From Escherichia phage Schulenburg, in the sequence record MK931438.1: DNA of 44,748 bases; one strand, 5' to 3'. A program made the position numbers and the translations under genes. Shown here piece by piece: positions 4,508-39,160 of this stretch (position 1 is the first letter of the stretch; each line of letters opens with the position of its first letter). The notes under the pieces were generated by a model. The model saw nothing but the letters and a program-made list of their open reading frames with translations, did not search any database and was not told the DNA's origin.

Positions 4508-4565
4508 AACCCCATGAAGGTATGCCTATCTCCGGCATCGACCAACCTTCATGGGGTTTTCTTAT
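4508..4565 (+). terminator. long hairpin plus T-tract (terminator-like)
   Basis: 12-14 bp stem ccccatgaaggt / accttcatgggg with ~23-nt loop, followed by TTTTCTTAT; the alternative ATG 4522 lies inside this hairpin. Confidence 0.45.
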
Positions 4566-4575
4566 AGGATTTAAT

Positions 4576-5145
4576 ATGGGAATTGTTTTTGGGGTAGGTA
4601 TTAATGATGTTTCACCAATAAGTTGCGGAGGGGTGCATATAGCGTCCTACGCCGGGTGGAAGAACATGTTAAAGAGGTGCTACGACAAGAAATGGCAGCA
4701 AAGAAACAGAACCTATACAGGTTGCCGTGTGTCTGACGATTGGTTGGTGTTCAGTAATTTCAAGGTCTGGTTTGATAATTTTTATGTACCTGGGTGGCAG
4801 ATAGATAAGGATTTACTGAACCCGGGAAATAAGGTTTACGATGCTTCTAACTGTGTTTTCATCCCCAAGTCCCTTAACACTTTCCTCACGGCCCACGACG
4901 CTCTTCGAGGCAAATACCCACTAGGTGTACATTTTCATAAACAAAAGAAAAGATTCATTGCCCAAGTATCCGTGGGTGGTGTATCTGAACAAATAGGCGC
5001 TTACGAAACCGCCCAAGAGGCACACGTAGCCTGGTTTCATAGAAAAATTGAATTAGCATATGAATACAAAGGCCTTTGCGATAGCATAGACCCACGCCTT
5101 TTCGAAGGCGTCTTACGTAAGATTAACTCAATGAAAGAGGTTTAG
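4576..5145 (+). CDS. HNH/AP2-type homing endonuclease-like protein
   Basis: N-terminal W-x2-M-x2-RC motif (GWKNMLKRC), degenerate His-Me-like region (IDKDLL..NCVFIP), C-terminal AP2-like segment (YETAQEAHVAW); AGGA SD 6 nt before ATG 4576. Confidence 0.55.
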   Translation: MGIVFGVGINDVSPISCGGVHIASYAGWKNMLKRCYDKKWQQRNRTYTGCRVSDDWLVFSNFKVWFDNFYVPGWQIDKDLLNPGNKVYDASNCVFIPKSLNTFLTAHDALRGKYPLGVHFHKQKKRFIAQVSVGGVSEQIGAYETAQEAHVAWFHRKIELAYEYKGLCDSIDPRLFEGVLRKINSMKEV

Positions 5146-5148
5146 TTT

Positions 5149-5607
5149 ATGGGCTTTTTTAAAGTAACTGATGTGCCGTCGCGTCGCGTAGTCCAATACG
5201 CCCGTGTATCCGGTTCTGGTGAGAACGTAACCTACGTTGAAGATGAAAGTGTACTAGGTACACCTGTAGACGAGATGCCGTATGTGGACAAGACCGGTAT
5301 CGCACTCTCTGCTGCTGGTATGCTTTATGAGATTCCGTATCTGGCAGATGCTGGTGATGTGTATTTCTCTGTGCAACCGAAAGACACCGAGCTGGTCGAC
5401 GGTAGCGCCACCATCACCGTCGAAGTTAAGGCGGGTAAAGCGCCGTATGTACTGACCTGGTACAAAGACGGGAAGGAAGTGGTGAACGCCCCGGAAGAGG
5501 CTCTGTCTCTGACTGTTAATGCGGCTGGTGAATACTTCACTAAAGTTACTGATGCCGATGGTGCGGAGGCCGTAAGCAAAGCGGCGAAGGTCTCTAAACC
5601 AGGATGA
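5149..5607 (+). CDS. Ig-like domain protein (possible capsid decoration)
   Basis: Beta-rich 152-aa ORF with Ig-like motif TVEVKAGKAPYVLTWYKDGKEV; AAAGAGG SD; in head module. Confidence 0.5.
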   Translation: MGFFKVTDVPSRRVVQYARVSGSGENVTYVEDESVLGTPVDEMPYVDKTGIALSAAGMLYEIPYLADAGDVYFSVQPKDTELVDGSATITVEVKAGKAPYVLTWYKDGKEVVNAPEEALSLTVNAAGEYFTKVTDADGAEAVSKAAKVSKPG

Positions 5608-5609
5608 TA

Positions 5610-5642
5610 AAAGGCCCCATAATGGGGCCTTAGTTTTATTTA
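5610..5642. terminator. bidirectional intrinsic terminator
   Basis: 8-bp stem aggcccca / tggggcct flanked by A-run upstream and TTTTATTT downstream; lies between convergent genes 5149-5607 (+) and 5636-6157 (-). Confidence 0.6.
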
Positions 5643-6157
5643 AATCGCGCAGGCATTAACACCATAAAGGCCGTGTTTGAAAATTGTATTTTGCATCCTC
5701 TGGTTTGGTCCTGGAAATCGAAACGAGCAATTTCATTTTTGTATGCCTTAGAAATCTTGTACGCGTCTGCCAAATAGCGCAGAGTGAACCCTATACTACC
5801 GACAACACCTGGTGTGATGTGCGCCACGCGTCTCCAGTCAGGAAAGTTTCCTTCTACAACATCTACCGGAAGTGTACATATAAGCGCACGATTATCGTCA
5901 TAGAAAGATACACTGCCGTTGTCGTGGTCTACCTCTGCGTAGTTAAATTTAGAAGGCTCTCTCCCTTTAATGTCGACGAGAACCCCTTTCTCAACGTTCG
6001 TCTTCACATTGTCGCAGAACAATCTATGACCGTCCGTAGACACTATCAATCCTTCAGGGTCTATGTAAAAAGCGTTCAAATAGTATCGAACATCATTTTT
6101 AGCCCTGCATATTTTCGCCCCTACATACGCAGGGAAAGTAATTACTGTAGTAACCAT
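5636..6157 (-). CDS. hypothetical protein (opposite-strand moron)
   Basis: 173-aa ORF on minus strand inside the head module; AGGAGG SD; own promoter motif upstream and convergent terminator; locally AT-rich. Confidence 0.6.
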   Translation of the reverse strand: MVTTVITFPAYVGAKICRAKNDVRYYLNAFYIDPEGLIVSTDGHRLFCDNVKTNVEKGVLVDIKGREPSKFNYAEVDHDNGSVSFYDDNRALICTLPVDVVEGNFPDWRRVAHITPGVVGSIGFTLRYLADAYKISKAYKNEIARFDFQDQTRGCKIQFSNTAFMVLMPARFK

Positions 6158-6184
6158 TTTATGCCTCCTGTTTAAGTTAACTGA

Positions 6185-6213
6185 ATAGTACCCTATTATA
6201 TTGGTGCGCGCAA
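6185..6213 (-). promoter_or_regulatory. type-B promoter/operator (TTGCGC-N17-TACTAT over palindrome AATAGGGTACTATT)
   Basis: Minus-strand TTGCGC, 17-nt spacer, TACTAT; inverted repeat AATAG-N4-CTATT overlaps the -10; about 30 nt upstream of moron start 6157. Confidence 0.45.
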
Positions 6214-6279
6214 ACTATTTATTTACGTATTCCAGTTATTCCACTCAATTGTAAACGTTGGAATAAACTATTCGAATAG

Positions 6280-6308
6280 TTGACTTTTCACTGAAAATAT
6301 GATAAGCT
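6280..6308 (+). promoter_or_regulatory. sigma70-like promoter (TTGACT-17-TAAGCT) of conserved RNA element, copy 1
   Basis: TTGACT, 17-nt spacer, TAAGCT; near-identical promoter and downstream sequence recur at about 37877. Confidence 0.5.
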
Positions 6309-6515
6309 CCACCTGAGCTTGTGAAGTATGAACAAGCGACCGCGGCGCGGGCAGGTAACGGAGCGGGACGTAAGTCCTGAGTGTAGTTACGCTGACGCGT
6401 TCGGAAGGGCCATAGTCTATTGCTTGTGTAAAAAGTAACTGGTTTACTGAGATTACGCCGTTTCTATGTTTAAATGATAAGGACTAGCGCCCCGCTTTAA
6501 GGCGGGGCTTTACTT
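6309..6515 (+). ncRNA. candidate promoter-proximal structured RNA / leader element (copy 1)
   Basis: About 40 nt (cctgagcttgtgaagtatgaacaagcgaccgcggcgcg) identical to copy 2, then about 130 nt diverged but alignable; hairpins gcttgt-N9-acaagc and ggac-GTAA-gtcc; ends with stem gccccgc/gcggggc plus TTTACTT just before the Rz SD. Confidence 0.3.
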
Positions 6516-6532
6516 ATCGAGAAAGGGGAAAC

Positions 6533-13243: not shown

Positions 13244-13273
13244 CTATTGTAATACAGCGCATTAGCTACGCGT

Positions 13274-13310
13274 AAGGAAAAGGCCCCTTTCGGGGCCTTT
13301 TCCTTATTCC
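13274..13310. terminator. strong bidirectional intrinsic terminator
   Basis: Perfect 14-bp stem aaggaaaaggcccc / ggggccttttcctt with TTTC loop, A-rich 5' side and T-rich 3' side; between convergent genes. Confidence 0.7.
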
Positions 13311-13477
13311 TTCAATTGCATTGGGTAGAAGTTAACGAGTTCTCCTTTATCCCGAAGCCGTGAATATTCATCTAACGCATCTTCCCGGCTACTTACAGCA
13401 TAGATATCATTCCACTCGTCCCATTCTTTGTCGTATACGCGGATTATGTATATTGTTTTCATTACATTCTTACTCAT
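13304..13477 (-). CDS. hypothetical small protein (57 aa)
   Basis: Minus-strand ORF, ATG at 13477 (M15 of track ORF 13304-13519); last gene of the moron operon. Confidence 0.4.
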   Translation of the reverse strand: MSKNVMKTIYIIRVYDKEWDEWNDIYAVSSREDALDEYSRLRDKGELVNFYPMQLKE

Positions 13478-13700
13478 CAATATTACTCCTGTACTCTCGT
13501 AACTTCTCCAGACTTTCAATTGCTTCCGCTAAGTCGGTTCCGGTGTCTTTGTGCCCGCGAAGGCCCATACACAATAGCTTCTTCAATGCGTGCTGTAGCG
13601 CCGGGTCGCGAATGTCGAAGGCACGCAGCACATCATAAACGTCTACTGTCATAGTGCTGCCGTGAGTGTTTGTCATTGTGCGGTTGTATTTATTTGTCAC
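13470..13700 (-). CDS. hypothetical conserved small phage protein
   Basis: 76-aa ORF with GTG start preceded by AAGAGAG; motif DVYDVLRAFDI...HALKKLL..GLRGHK. Confidence 0.45.
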   Translation of the reverse strand: MTNKYNRTMTNTHGSTMTVDVYDVLRAFDIRDPALQHALKKLLCMGLRGHKDTGTDLAEAIESLEKLREYRSNIDE

Positions 13701-13890
13701 TGTTAACTCTCTTAAATCTGGCTATGCCTGACTCGTTAATGTTGCCTATTTCAAAGAAGCTGCGATATTTAGGCGAATACATTCTTACATCGCCATTCTC
13801 TAGGGTGACCCCTTCATATACAGCACCTACTTCGAATCCATTTTTCTCCGCGTACGGACTCACATCGGTGCATTCATACATGTCTTTCAT
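13690..13890 (-). CDS. hypothetical protein (66 aa)
   Basis: ATG overlaps stop of upstream gene (ATGA); same operon. Confidence 0.45.
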   Translation of the reverse strand: MKDMYECTDVSPYAEKNGFEVGAVYEGVTLENGDVRMYSPKYRSFFEIGNINESGIARFKRVNSDK

Positions 13891-15017
13891 CCAAGCATCT
13901 CCGGTGAAATAGTTAAACGTGCGACCTCGCCATATTCGGCGCTATAAGTAATTACATTTGCACTACGACCTGACATCCATCCGCCGCGAGAGGCGTAGGC
14001 GTCTTTAGCCGCCAGGGTGCGGTGTTGCTCAACAACCATGTTACGGCTTTCTACAATCTTCTGATGGTGCAGGTGGCCTACATGGGCGTAGCTGTAAACA
14101 CTCTCGCCGAACGCTTTGCGGAACTTGGCAATCATAACCGGTTCGATAGCGTCGAATCGTGCCTTATGCCCGTGGTGAAAGAACAGCGTCGTTTTGCCGT
14201 GTTGCACCATCTTGTAAACATCTGGCGACGTGTCGACGAACACCCGCGGCTCGTTGTCGTACAGCGTACTAAACATCTCAGCTAACCAAATCATTCCGCT
14301 TTCGTCGTGGTTTCCTTGCACGATAAGCAAGCGAACATTTTTATGCTTAACCAGCGCCATACCGACAACACGGCGTACCATACGAATCATGTAGCGGACC
14401 AGTTTCTGATAACGAGTGTCCGCATCAAGAACATGACCACTCGCTGGCGTAACCGCATCCAGACTATCGAAGTGCGCGAAGTCACCCAGCAGGTTAATAA
14501 CCCCAGTTCCTGCATCTGGTGCTTTCTGAAACGCCGCATCGAACCATCGGGAGAACAGGTCTTCTGCAATCTTCATGTCCCAGTCGTCGCCGCTCTCGTC
14601 GGCCCAGGCCAGCATACCGAGATGGAAATCAGATACAGTGTAAAGATTAAGTAGTTTATCGTCACGTTTGGCGCGAACGGCTTTAACAGGCGCAACCGGC
14701 GTAATCTCTGACTTCATGCCCTCGATTACAGCTTTCATCAACTCGACCTGACGTTCAGCGTCAGTGTCTGTCTTAACCCATTGCAACTTAGTGTTGCCGA
14801 ACTCGTCCACAAGCGACGACGTTCCTTTAATCTTGTAGCCGTCCGGGACAAGATGGCTAACGTCACGACCGTGACCTACGCCTTTCTTCGCCAGCTTCGC
14901 TTTACGGATACGAATAACTCGGTCTGAGATGCCGTATTTACGGGATATGTCGATAATCTTTGTTCCGGCGTTCAATTCTTCCTGTAACTGTTCGTCGGTT
15001 ATTTTAATCCGGGCCAT
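13887..15017 (-). CDS. HTH-domain + calcineurin-like metallophosphoesterase
   Basis: Metallophosphoesterase motifs in order: DFHLG, GDFAHFD, GNHDE, HHGH, GHLHH; N-terminal ~100 aa HTH-like; GAGGAAG SD. Confidence 0.7.
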   Translation of the reverse strand: MARIKITDEQLQEELNAGTKIIDISRKYGISDRVIRIRKAKLAKKGVGHGRDVSHLVPDGYKIKGTSSLVDEFGNTKLQWVKTDTDAERQVELMKAVIEGMKSEITPVAPVKAVRAKRDDKLLNLYTVSDFHLGMLAWADESGDDWDMKIAEDLFSRWFDAAFQKAPDAGTGVINLLGDFAHFDSLDAVTPASGHVLDADTRYQKLVRYMIRMVRRVVGMALVKHKNVRLLIVQGNHDESGMIWLAEMFSTLYDNEPRVFVDTSPDVYKMVQHGKTTLFFHHGHKARFDAIEPVMIAKFRKAFGESVYSYAHVGHLHHQKIVESRNMVVEQHRTLAAKDAYASRGGWMSGRSANVITYSAEYGEVARLTISPEMLG

Positions 15018-15056
15018 GCTTTACTTCCTCGTGTTTAGGATTTGTCCTATACTAGC

Positions 15057-15248
15057 TCACTTCTCTTTGACATTCGAGTTGCAAGCCCAGATTAAAATAA
15101 ATACCCACGGCAGCAGAACCCAGCCAAGAAACAGATTGGCCATGAATATCGCTAATTTCGCTTTATGACCCCGCATATGGGCCACTAAAAACGGGATAAA
15201 ATAAACTAAAACGATAATGATTAAGAAGAACATAGTAATACCTGTCAT
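15057..15248 (-). CDS. superinfection-immunity-like small membrane protein
   Basis: 63 aa, two predicted TM helices, motif YFIPFLVAHMRGHK...LGWVLLPWVFILIWA resembling Imm-type families; AGGAG SD. Confidence 0.5.
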   Translation of the reverse strand: MTGITMFFLIIIVLVYFIPFLVAHMRGHKAKLAIFMANLFLGWVLLPWVFILIWACNSNVKEK

Positions 15249-15289
15249 GGTGTAGCTCCTGTTTGAGTTAACATTGTTGGTGTAAGTGA

Positions 15290-15318
15290 ATAGTATCCTA
15301 TTATGTTGGGGTGCGCAA
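15290..15318 (-). promoter_or_regulatory. type-B promoter/operator (TTGCGC-N17-TACTAT over palindrome AATAGGATACTATT)
   Basis: Same architecture as sites near 6185, 38175 and 39101; about 40 nt upstream of the Imm-like gene. Confidence 0.45.
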
Positions 15319-15426
15319 GTAATGTGATAGAATAATTTTGCGCCTAGTGTCGCACACGAAAAGCGGGTGGTTCCCGTCTGGCGCATTTACCATTAACCTG
15401 TAACCTCTTAACCAAAGGATTAAAGA

Positions 15427-31753: not shown

Positions 31754-31782
31754 ACTATAATAGCTAACTATTCAGGTGTCAA
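31754..31782 (-). promoter_or_regulatory. type-A promoter with operator in spacer (TTGACA-17-TATAGT; AATAG-N4-CTATT)
   Basis: Perfect -35, 17-nt spacer containing inverted repeat gAATAGTTAGCTATTat; immediately after the DUF2800-like stop. Confidence 0.55.
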
Positions 31783-34290: not shown

Positions 34291-34319
34291 ACTATAATAG
34301 CGAACTATTCACTTGTCAA
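34291..34319 (-). promoter_or_regulatory. type-A promoter with operator in spacer (TTGACA-17-TATAGT; AATAG-N4-CTATT)
   Basis: Minus-strand promoter divergent from the HTH regulator gene; inverted repeat gAATAGTTCGCTATTat in spacer. Confidence 0.55.
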
Positions 34320-34322
34320 TGG

Positions 34323-34352
34323 GCTTTTCTAAAATAATTAATATGGTACTAT
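34323..34352 (+). promoter_or_regulatory. candidate promoter of HTH regulator with half-palindrome AATATGGTACTATT
   Basis: TACTAT -10-like hexamer with weak -35; operator-like motif related to the type-B sites. Confidence 0.35.
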
Positions 34353-34383
34353 TCACGCATCAACTAACTAAGGAGTAACTGAC

Positions 34384-34599
34384 ATGCAACCATCTGAACT
34401 AGGCATCCGTGTAGAACAACGCCGTAAAGAACTCGGCATCTCCCAGCGCCGTCTGGCTGTCCTGACTGGCGTTTCCCAGGGCGCGATTAACCAACTGGCA
34501 CTTGGGGTAACTCAGGACGTCCGCCCGGCGACGCTGTTTAAACTGGCGGAAGTGCTGGAGGTAGACGCCAAGTGGCTGGCGTTAGGTGAAGGGGCTTAA
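34384..34599 (+). CDS. HTH XRE-family transcriptional regulator (Cro/CI-like)
   Basis: 71 aa; HTH region ELGISQRRLAVLTGVSQGAINQLALG; AAGGAG SD; divergent from operator-containing promoters. Confidence 0.7.
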   Translation: MQPSELGIRVEQRRKELGISQRRLAVLTGVSQGAINQLALGVTQDVRPATLFKLAEVLEVDAKWLALGEGA

Positions 34600-37876: not shown

Positions 37877-37905
37877 GTTGACTTTTACTAAGAAATATGG
37901 TAAGC
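37877..37905 (+). promoter_or_regulatory. sigma70-like promoter (TTGACT-17-TAAGCT) of conserved RNA element, copy 2
   Basis: Same hexamers and spacing as the copy at about 6280. Confidence 0.5.
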
Positions 37906-38105
37906 TCAGCCTGAGCTTGTGAAGTATGAACAAGCGACCGCGGCGCGCGGCAGGCGAAACGAGCACGTGTAGCGTGTGGAGTGAGGCTCGCTAGCGCGTT
38001 TGGGAGGCCCAAAGTCTATTGTAATTCCCGCCTAAATATCTAAGTTACTGATTTGCCGTAGGTTATATCCGCAAGCTCACTCACTCTTGGTGCCTTCGGC
38101 ACCAC
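37906..38105 (+). ncRNA. candidate promoter-proximal structured RNA / leader element (copy 2)
   Basis: Shares the about 40-nt core and a further diverged about 130 nt with copy 1; hairpin gcttgt-N9-acaagc; ends near the ggtgcc-ttcg-ggcacc hairpin. Confidence 0.3.
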
Positions 38106-38174: not shown

Positions 38175-38203
38175 CTTGCACACCCCAACATAATAGGATA
38201 CTA
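38175..38203 (+). promoter_or_regulatory. type-B promoter/operator (TTGCAC-N17-TACTAT over palindrome AATAGGATACTATT)
   Basis: About 35 nt upstream of first early gene. Confidence 0.45.
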
Positions 38204-38238
38204 TTCACTTATCGGAACGAGACAGAGGAGTGAGGGTT

Positions 38239-39100: not shown

Positions 39101-39129
39101 TTGCACGATGGGGAAGAATAGGATACTAT
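39101..39129 (+). promoter_or_regulatory. type-B promoter/operator (TTGCAC-N17-TACTAT over palindrome AATAGGATACTATT)
   Basis: About 35 nt upstream of ATG 39161. Confidence 0.45.
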
Positions 39130-39160
39130 TCATTTACACAAACGAGAGGAGAGGCAGAAT

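Follow-up and report, generated by a model that had tools for sequence, protein, structure and literature searches.

What does the lone antisense gene inside the head module of Escherichia phage Schulenburg encode, and what might its product do during infection? We addressed this question in the window, that is, the whole 44,748-nt stretch of sequence record MK931438.1. By sequence similarity, the window groups with the Guernseyvirinae, genus Kagunavirus, which is a virulent genus. Its gene order runs from the terminase through the portal, an SPP1-gp7-like minor capsid protein, an HNH endonuclease and a Hoc-like Ig-domain decoration protein to the gene of interest, and continues with the spanins, the scaffold and the major capsid protein. 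The same order is found in the Escherichia phages fPoEco01, fFiEco02, Ivi and Snoke, which share 96-97% identity with Schulenburg over a ~2-kb segment spanning the gene. The annotation of phage Ivi includes an excisionase-like regulator; no integrase was seen in it. For reasons given below, we refer to the gene product as the mini-clamp.

An antisense promoter-ORF-terminator unit

The first-pass annotation had described a 173-aa minus-strand ORF between the Ig-like head gene and the spanins, with a strong Shine-Dalgarno sequence, its own promoter/operator at 6185-6213 and a bidirectional terminator shared with the neighbouring gene. All of these elements were recovered, the promoter at exactly these coordinates, and they are arranged as follows:

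5149-5607, convergent to the mini-clamp gene: Ig/Hoc-like head decoration gene
5607..6214, minus strand: mobile promoter-ORF-terminator cassette of ~608 bp, delimited by homology to Sciku; in K1ind3, ~12 bp stand in place of ~5611-6227
5611..5631, both strands: bidirectional intrinsic-terminator hairpin, common to the mini-clamp gene and the convergent Hoc-like decoration gene, travelling with the cassette
5636..6157, minus strand: mini-clamp CDS (truncated β-clamp homolog), 173 aa, ATG start; retains domain II, the C-terminal half of domain III and the clamp-binding-motif (CBM) pocket
6164..6169, minus strand: Shine-Dalgarno sequence AGGAGG, 6 nt before the ATG; annotated as RBS in phage Snoke
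6184-6197, minus strand: operator-like palindrome AATAG-N4-CTATT, overlapping the -10 box
6185..6213, minus strand: promoter with -35 box TTGCGC (6208-6213), 17-nt spacer and -10 box TACTAT (6185-6190)
from 6533: i-/o-spanin genes

The core of the promoter, ATAATAGGRTACTATTCA, occurs seven times in the window where 0.05 copies are expected, so the promoter is not a chance match to a consensus. The full cTTGCrC-N17-TACTAT-TCA architecture is present in four of the seven copies, namely the mini-clamp promoter and those at 15287(-), 38190(+) and 39115(+), the latter three each leading into a Shine-Dalgarno sequence and an ATG. The copy at 15287(-) precedes a superinfection-immunity/exonuclease island that lies antisense within the tail module, while the copies at 38190(+) and 39115(+) precede small early genes at 38-39 kb. 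Read on the minus strand, the remaining three copies are TTGACA-N17-TATAGT promoters carrying the same palindrome inside the spacer; they are located upstream of the replication operons and on both sides of an HTH regulator gene (34384-34599), whose product is a candidate ligand of the AATAG-N4-CTATT palindrome. The predicted promoter/operator of the mini-clamp gene is of the type found at the small early genes and at another accessory island, and this resemblance suggests that the gene may be expressed early.

At the other end of the unit, the GC-rich hairpin comprises 9 bp; its folding energy is -16.3 kcal/mol for the plus and -15.8 kcal/mol for the minus strand. Each strand has a U-run after it, the one on the minus strand being shorter (UUUUAU). 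A terminator is marked on both strands in the annotation of Snoke, and the Sciku copy of the gene keeps the hairpin despite occupying a different slot. An Rfam search of the whole window, and a permissive one of the adjacent intergenic element, returned nothing significant.

A mobile, dispensable and probably old gene

The alignment with Sciku (88% nucleotide identity) opens at the -35 box and closes just past the terminator hairpin. These limits define a mobile unit at ~5607-6214 that comprises the promoter, the Shine-Dalgarno sequence, the ORF and the terminator. In K1ind3, K1H and Bas73, the flanks are ~91% identical to those in the window and the mini-clamp gene is cleanly absent. Overall, the present allele (at least 88% nucleotide identity) was found in only 22 phage records, compared with 301 records holding the flanking region. 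The gene is dispensable among close relatives.

The slots of the gene also vary. In Sciku, it lies antisense between the portal and the capsid-morphogenesis (gp7) genes, and in Salmonella phage SE1 between the spanins and the scaffold gene. The Dhillonvirus TheodorHerzl carries a homolog in antisense orientation between the o-spanin gene and the gene at the scaffold position, and in SaI_NFG_5577 the same slot as in the window is occupied by an allele with 43% amino acid identity.

Together, the Sciku homology limits, the different slots and the relatives devoid of the gene bear out the earlier description of the locus as a single-gene moron on the opposite strand. Its presence among related phages is patchy. 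Like the morons of tailed phages, the cassette has, in silico, its own promoter and terminator around one gene, is present in some collinear relatives and absent from others, is inserted at several intergenic sites and has a lower GC content than its neighbours, although low GC is common to other early and accessory genes of this phage. It differs from classical morons, which are expressed from prophages and benefit the lysogen, in that it belongs to a virulent genus and has a promoter of the putative early-lytic type.

The low GC content had previously been taken as a sign of horizontal acquisition. The ORF has 43.1% GC against 50.0% for the window, which places it at the 3.5th percentile of all 522-nt windows (~1.9 SD low), and its GC3 is 0.437 compared with a gene mean of 0.523 ± 0.071. 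About 10 of the 69 ORF calls are as low in GC or lower, nearly all of them small early or accessory genes, together with the HNH gene next to it. Compared with the structural genes, the region is AT-rich, yet it is ordinary among the accessory genes of this phage; the AT-richness itself is real and its uniqueness is not. A recent foreign origin as the cause of the low GC is disfavoured both by this early-gene-like composition and by the divergence of the TheodorHerzl homolog, which is 39% identical at the amino acid level. The corresponding values for core genes are 29% (portal), 41% (TerL), 36% (SSB) and 61% (polymerase). As the homolog falls within the core-gene range, we consider that the comparison points to a mobile gene that has long resided in this phage group and is frequently lost, rather than to a recent import.

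The mini-clamp is a truncated homolog of the β sliding clamp

The first-pass annotation had seen no recognisable motifs in the protein. This part has to be revised: RYYLN, TDGHRL, FPDWRRV and MPAR are signature pocket motifs of the β sliding clamp, and the predicted 19.6-kDa product is a truncated homolog of this protein (DnaN). A phmmer search against the PDB sequences retrieved the Escherichia coli β clamp at E = 3e-5 in two collinear blocks, where residues 16-116 correspond to β 144-252 (domain II) and residues 117-171 to β 312-365 (second half of domain III). The E. coli DnaN reference sequence used here is identical to PDB 1MMI over 366 of 366 residues. The mini-clamp comprises three contiguous β-α-β-β-β half-domains, namely both halves of domain II and the C-terminal half of domain III, and its clamp-fold domains can be superposed on those of β. 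Missing from it are domain I and the N-terminal half of domain III (β 1-124 and 253-311).

The Pfam and NCBIfam models of the β clamp return weak scores. The only Pfam match is to DNA_pol3_beta_2, the central domain, at 17.4 bits against a threshold of 27, and the NCBIfam model for dnaN (TIGR00663) gives 20.8 bits against a cut-off of 137.65. At 173 aa, the protein lacks the three-domain architecture of ~366 aa (PF00712, PF02767 and PF02768) that characterises DnaN. Among the PHROGs, on the other hand, it matches phrog_3007 at 2e-36 and also the processivity-factor family phrog_947, and it is a clear member of the PHROG 3007/BFVD cluster of phage 'Pol III beta' proteins of 163-250 aa.

The best PHROG match carries the label of a RusA-like Holliday junction resolvase, which has been copied into many GenBank records and would make the protein a resolvase. 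There is no RusA Pfam match even at E <= 1 and the fold is that of the β clamp, so that the family label appears to be an annotation error and we attach practically no credence to a RusA-like activity.

A mainly phage-borne family of short proteins

Searching 1.84 billion cluster representatives (50% identity) with a profile brought up 2,109 proteins at E <= 1e-10. The 150 top-scoring ones are all 72-234 aa long, which identifies a family of short proteins rather than a collection of dnaN fragments. BFVD contains numerous phage proteins of 163-250 aa that share this truncated fold. The matches from Serratia and Pantoea phages reach TMq values of 0.83-0.86, and those from Burkholderia, Rhodococcus, Gordonia and Bacillus phages are weaker (0.55-0.71). 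Using tblastn, we found a family member in 237 phage records from many genera, while a scan of bacteria with one genome per species gave only 17 loci, and dnaN itself probably accounts for some of these. The mini-clamp family is mainly phage-borne.

In these other phages, too, the member lies in accessory or early regions. In Bas81, ZCKP8 and Gorganvirus, the member lies in short antisense islands beside capsid or tail genes, together with ParB-like or regulator genes. Vibrio phage XM1 carries it within the early recombination region, and a T4-like Morganella phage amid small early genes. T4-like phages have a clamp of their own, gp45.

The docking pocket is conserved

In the β clamp, the CBM-binding pocket consists of subsite I (R152, L155, T172, G174, H175, R176, L177, P242, R246, V247, V360 and M362) and subsite II (H175, N320, Y323, V344, M362, P363, M364 and R365), as compiled in a 2024 review (PMC11139829). 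Comparison with E. coli β showed 15 of these 18 pocket residues to be identical in the mini-clamp, compared with 37 of 134 residues elsewhere (Fisher p = 8e-6). Subsite I is fully identical (12/12), being formed by R24, L27, T41, G43, H44, R45, L46, P106, R110, V111, V166 and M168. The three mismatches replace β N320 by T, V344 by T and M364 by A. The mini-clamp has a conserved CBM-binding pocket with both subsites and is predicted to bind peptides there.

The same residues stand out across the family. An alignment of 203 diverse members has 17 positions with a conservation of 80% or more, and 11 of them are pocket residues (p = 4e-9), namely R152, L155, T172, G174, H175, P242, R246, Y323, M362, P363 and R365 in β numbering. 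Most of the other positions conserved at this level are immediate neighbours of pocket residues. The window and Sciku alleles differ with a dN/dS of 0.16, indicating purifying selection on the protein, and the conservation pattern identifies the docking pocket as preserved under strong selection.

The alleles of Sciku and of P0005 (from a Salmonella Dublin assembly) both have H44 changed to R, accompanied by a change of M168 to I or A. The equivalent residues of β, His175 and Met362, bridge subsites I and II (PMC11139829). The paired changes suggest a coupled tuning of what would be a working pocket.

The ring interface is missing

In the β dimer, the subunits are joined by the packing of I78 and F106 of domain I onto I272 and L273 of domain III, with ion pairs that involve K74, R96, E298 and E300 (PMC11139829). 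All of these residues fall in the segments absent from the mini-clamp (1-124 and 253-311). With every residue of the head-to-tail β dimer interface missing, the protein cannot close a ring in the way β does. It further differs from the bacterial clamp, an acidic protein of 366 aa (pI 5.25), in being basic (pI 8.3), less than half as long, phage-borne, accessory and unaccompanied by an annotated loader.

The closest experimental analogue is an engineered monomeric β (I272A/L273A), likewise a non-ring form with an intact pocket. It binds the clamp-loader subunit δ ~50-fold tighter than the ring does and still binds DNA, but does not support processive synthesis by Pol III (PMC11139829). Whereas this variant keeps all three domains, the mini-clamp is a natural deletion form of 1.5 domains, for which binding is a prediction.

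Could the protein nevertheless be a genuine minimal clamp? Three contiguous half-domains amount to a quarter of a ring, so that four 1.5-domain subunits (4 × 3 half-domains = 12), or some other oligomer, might assemble into a ring of six domains around DNA and work with the phage polymerase. The GenBank name 'DNA polymerase III sliding clamp' would fit such a role, as would the half-domain left alone, which must presumably bury the surface that is packed on the missing half in β. However, such a ring would have to form with none of the β-type interface residues, and the score against the dnaN model lies far below its cut-off. No clamp-loader gene is annotated in the near-identical Ivi or in TheodorHerzl, the family A polymerase of the phage has no CBM, the gene is accessory, and the family extends to a T4-like phage, a group supplied with gp45. 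We therefore regard a complete minimal clamp as improbable.

Oligomerisation of a different kind deserves separate mention. Since the orphan half of domain III would expose a surface that is packed on the missing half in β, self-pairing is plausible, and this half-domain is likely to find a partner in a second copy or in another protein. More speculatively, pairing of 1.5-domain subunits through their orphan half-domains may give rise to a new clamp architecture of two or four subunits.

A possible decoy of host clamp partners

A protein that keeps the docking pocket and lacks the parts that close the ring probably does not serve as a clamp but captures or diverts proteins of host replication and repair. 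The version we favour, which we put at a little under an even chance, is that the accessory mini-clamp is made early and titrates host clamp partners away from the clamp hub. It would bind the QL[SD]LF-type motifs of these partners, the candidate ligands being the clamp-loader subunit δ, the α and ε subunits of Pol III, Hda, Pol II/IV/V and MutS/MutL, with δ and Pol III first. Titration of such partners would cause host replication, clamp loading or repair to stall, while the replisome of the phage, based on Pol A, helicase and primase with no recognisable CBM, would be spared.

A phage-encoded partner was sought with strict and relaxed CBM patterns on 76 ORF calls. None matched in the polymerase, helicase, primase, SSB or exonucleases, although CBMs are degenerate and a phage-encoded partner could escape such pattern scans. 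Matches were limited to internal sites of structural proteins and to the N-terminus of a holin-region protein (SLSLF), and we treated all of them as chance. Because the phage replication proteins lack the motif and the gene is dispensable in near-identical phages, host clamp partners are the likeliest ligands. Both the target and the direction of the effect, inhibition or recruitment, are predictions at the level of sequence.

Attacks on the clamp hub by phages have precedents. Staphylococcus phage G1 produces an early inhibitor of the host clamp, ORF240. Gp168 of phage Twort is an early protein that attacks the β-clamp hub and arrests host replication (PMC8565349). Gp168 and ORF240 act on the host clamp itself by binding in its channel or pocket, whereas the mini-clamp would imitate the pocket and capture the partners of the clamp.

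The electrostatics of the protein speak against a pure decoy. Its pI of 8.3 compares with 5.25 for whole β and 5.6 for the equivalent β segments (the family median is 7.7), and the equivalent of the channel-lining helix carries a conserved lysine, K134 (81%), as well as K137. These features suit direct DNA binding and favour a role as an adaptor or non-ring processivity factor, in which the mini-clamp would hold directly on to phage DNA, much as UL42/UL44 of herpesviruses do, while its CBM pocket tethers a CBM-bearing enzyme, helping the phage without inhibiting the host. Candidates for the tethered enzyme are Pol III, Pol I, ligase or a repair factor of the host, or else a phage protein that has escaped recognition. 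Viral clamp homologs that work without a loader have a raised pI and probably bind DNA directly (Kazlauskas and Venclovas, PMC3201878), and, as described above, monomeric β retains DNA binding. The same monomeric β cannot tether Pol III processively (PMC11139829), and an adaptor for replication sits uneasily with a gene that is dispensable in close relatives with near-identical replisomes, lies in accessory or early islands away from the replication genes and has no CBM to engage in the phage polymerase, helicase, primase or SSB. The non-ring processivity factors of herpesviruses (UL42, UL44, PF-8 and BMRF1) have two full domains, bind the C-terminus of their own polymerase and are essential parts of the replisome; the mini-clamp, by contrast, is encoded by an accessory gene and its pocket matches the bacterial CBM site. 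On balance, we consider the adaptor role rather unlikely, though the most probable of the alternatives.

The pocket evidence that underlies the decoy of replication partners would equally serve a decoy against host defence, which would capture a CBM-bearing host nuclease, defence or repair factor, such as RecBCD, and block its recruitment to clamp-marked phage DNA. A direct interaction between RecBCD and the clamp is reported in a preprint (10.1101/2025.08.20.671105), the patchy and mobile distribution of the gene is typical of conflict genes, and ParB-like and small early genes are its neighbours in Bas81 and ZCKP8. Still, the proposal is wholly inferential, no particular defence system being implicated; PADLOC gave no match with its models, which cover defence rather than anti-defence genes. 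We assign this counter-defence role a low probability.

Returning to the titration of host clamp partners, we propose, with somewhat greater reserve than for Schulenburg alone, that mini-clamps constitute a large unrecognised class of 'hub-mimic' phage proteins, in which a ring-free pocket soaks up host CBM proteins early while the phage replisome is spared. The ligands would be δ, Pol III, Hda, translesion and mismatch-repair factors and possibly RecBCD, and the outcome either a shutdown of host replication and repair or the disarming of clamp-dependent nucleases.

Bacterial replication and repair have their central protein hub in the β clamp, which is also a validated target of antibiotics. 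If the proposal is correct, a natural and widespread phage protein that copies only the docking pocket would represent a new takeover strategy, mimicry of the hub instead of its blockade. The mini-clamp would then also offer a ready genetic tool for the in vivo titration of clamp partners, as well as a minimal scaffold on which to screen pocket-binding compounds.

Annotation of the family

Relatives of the mini-clamp are named in GenBank as 'DNA polymerase III sliding clamp', 'beta clamp domain-containing protein' or 'RusA-like Holliday junction resolvase'. The first of these names attributes to the protein a role for which its architecture gives no support. Literature searches over 8 million papers turned up one genome paper that repeats the β clamp description without analysis (PMC9825357), but no study that addresses the function or structure of the truncated form. 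The mini-clamp is best described as a pocket-only, non-ring derivative of the β clamp that is widespread in phages. Given the size of the family, with more than 2,000 clusters at 50% identity and members in 237 sequenced phages, a corrected description would touch many annotations, including those of therapeutic-phage candidates.

A conserved non-coding element adjoins the cassette

Directly adjoining the cassette, the mobile promoter-ORF-terminator unit that encodes the mini-clamp (a truncated beta sliding clamp homolog), we found a non-coding element with its own promoter and terminator, of which a second copy is present elsewhere in the genome.

6279-6520 (+), non-coding element, 242 nt
Within 6279-6520 (+), element promoter read from the sequence: TTGACT-N17-TAAGCT, with a TG before the -10 (extended -10)
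6489-6508 (+), strong terminator of the element, just 5' of the spanin, scaffold and capsid genes
6268-6279, perfect inverse palindrome CTATTCGAATAG, abutting the -35 box of the element
37877-38021 (+), paralog of the element, 79% identical over ~145 nt

Transcription from the element promoter is predicted to yield an RNA of about 200 nt. Its sequence is conserved at 95% identity or more in 177 of 180 Guernseyvirinae records, among them Salmonella phages in which identity of the flanking genes falls to 60-90%. Common to both copies are the promoter and the initial ~110 nt of the transcript; the second copy, too, is closed by a hairpin, some 200 nt further downstream. An annotated 36-aa ORF is disrupted by a 1-nt indel between the copies. 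MFE z-scores were modest (-1.7 and -0.7), and Rfam returned no significant match for the element, either in a scan of the whole window or when the element was searched again at a permissive threshold. By analogy, its layout resembles that of lambda PR'-6S RNA-tR' or of a put-like antitermination leader, which would here precede the late genes.

An operator-like palindrome is shared by seven promoters

Scanning the window for the palindrome AATAG-N4-CTATT, which overlaps the -10 of the cassette promoter, we located it inside seven promoters of two architectures.

6184-6197, 15287-15304, 31757-31774, 34294-34311, 34338-34355, 38190-38207 and 39115-39132, palindrome-bearing motif copies
34384-34599, gene of an HTH regulator, flanked by two copies of the palindrome

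This distribution of sequence motifs, together with the inverse palindrome at 6268-6279, suggests that one phage regulator controls the early and accessory genes, including the mini-clamp.

Head-module insertions and a tail-module island

4522-5145 (+), AT-rich HNH endonuclease gene (43.3% GC), flanked by the genes of the minor capsid protein and the Hoc-like protein
5633-5645 and 6214-6226, direct repeats TTTATTTA and TATTTATTTA, both short and AT-rich, one at each edge of the region missing in the relative K1ind3
13251-15420 (-), second antisense island, inside the tail module, with the same promoter type as the cassette

The HNH gene is found in the relatives fPoEco01, fFiEco02 and K1ind3 and is missing from Snoke and Ivi; Snoke has an intein in the capsid-morphogenesis gene instead. 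The head-module stretch around this gene is a hotspot of selfish or mobile insertions. The direct repeats could represent recombination microhomology, or chance similarity in AT-rich DNA.

The tail-module island encodes a small membrane 'superinfection immunity' protein and a 376-aa SbcD-like exonuclease. The latter is 76% identical to a protein of the Dhillonvirus TheodorHerzl, the highest value among all shared genes and a hint that the two genera have exchanged genetic material recently.

Pocket alleles and family label of the mini-clamp

Two mini-clamp alleles (Sciku L013, 2501-3022, and protein P0005), compared with window 5636-6157 (-), combine replacement of H44 (beta His175) by Arg with replacement of M168 (beta Met362) by Ile or Ala. 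The positions correspond to the two residues bridging the subsites of the clamp pocket, and changing both together may act as a specificity switch.

PHROG 3007, the best-matching phage family, is labeled 'RusA-like Holliday junction resolvase', a function that we rejected, as both the sequence and the fold of the family contradict it. The resolvase label is propagating into many new phage genome records, e.g. Bas81, vB_VIPECOMC04 and SHAK7693.
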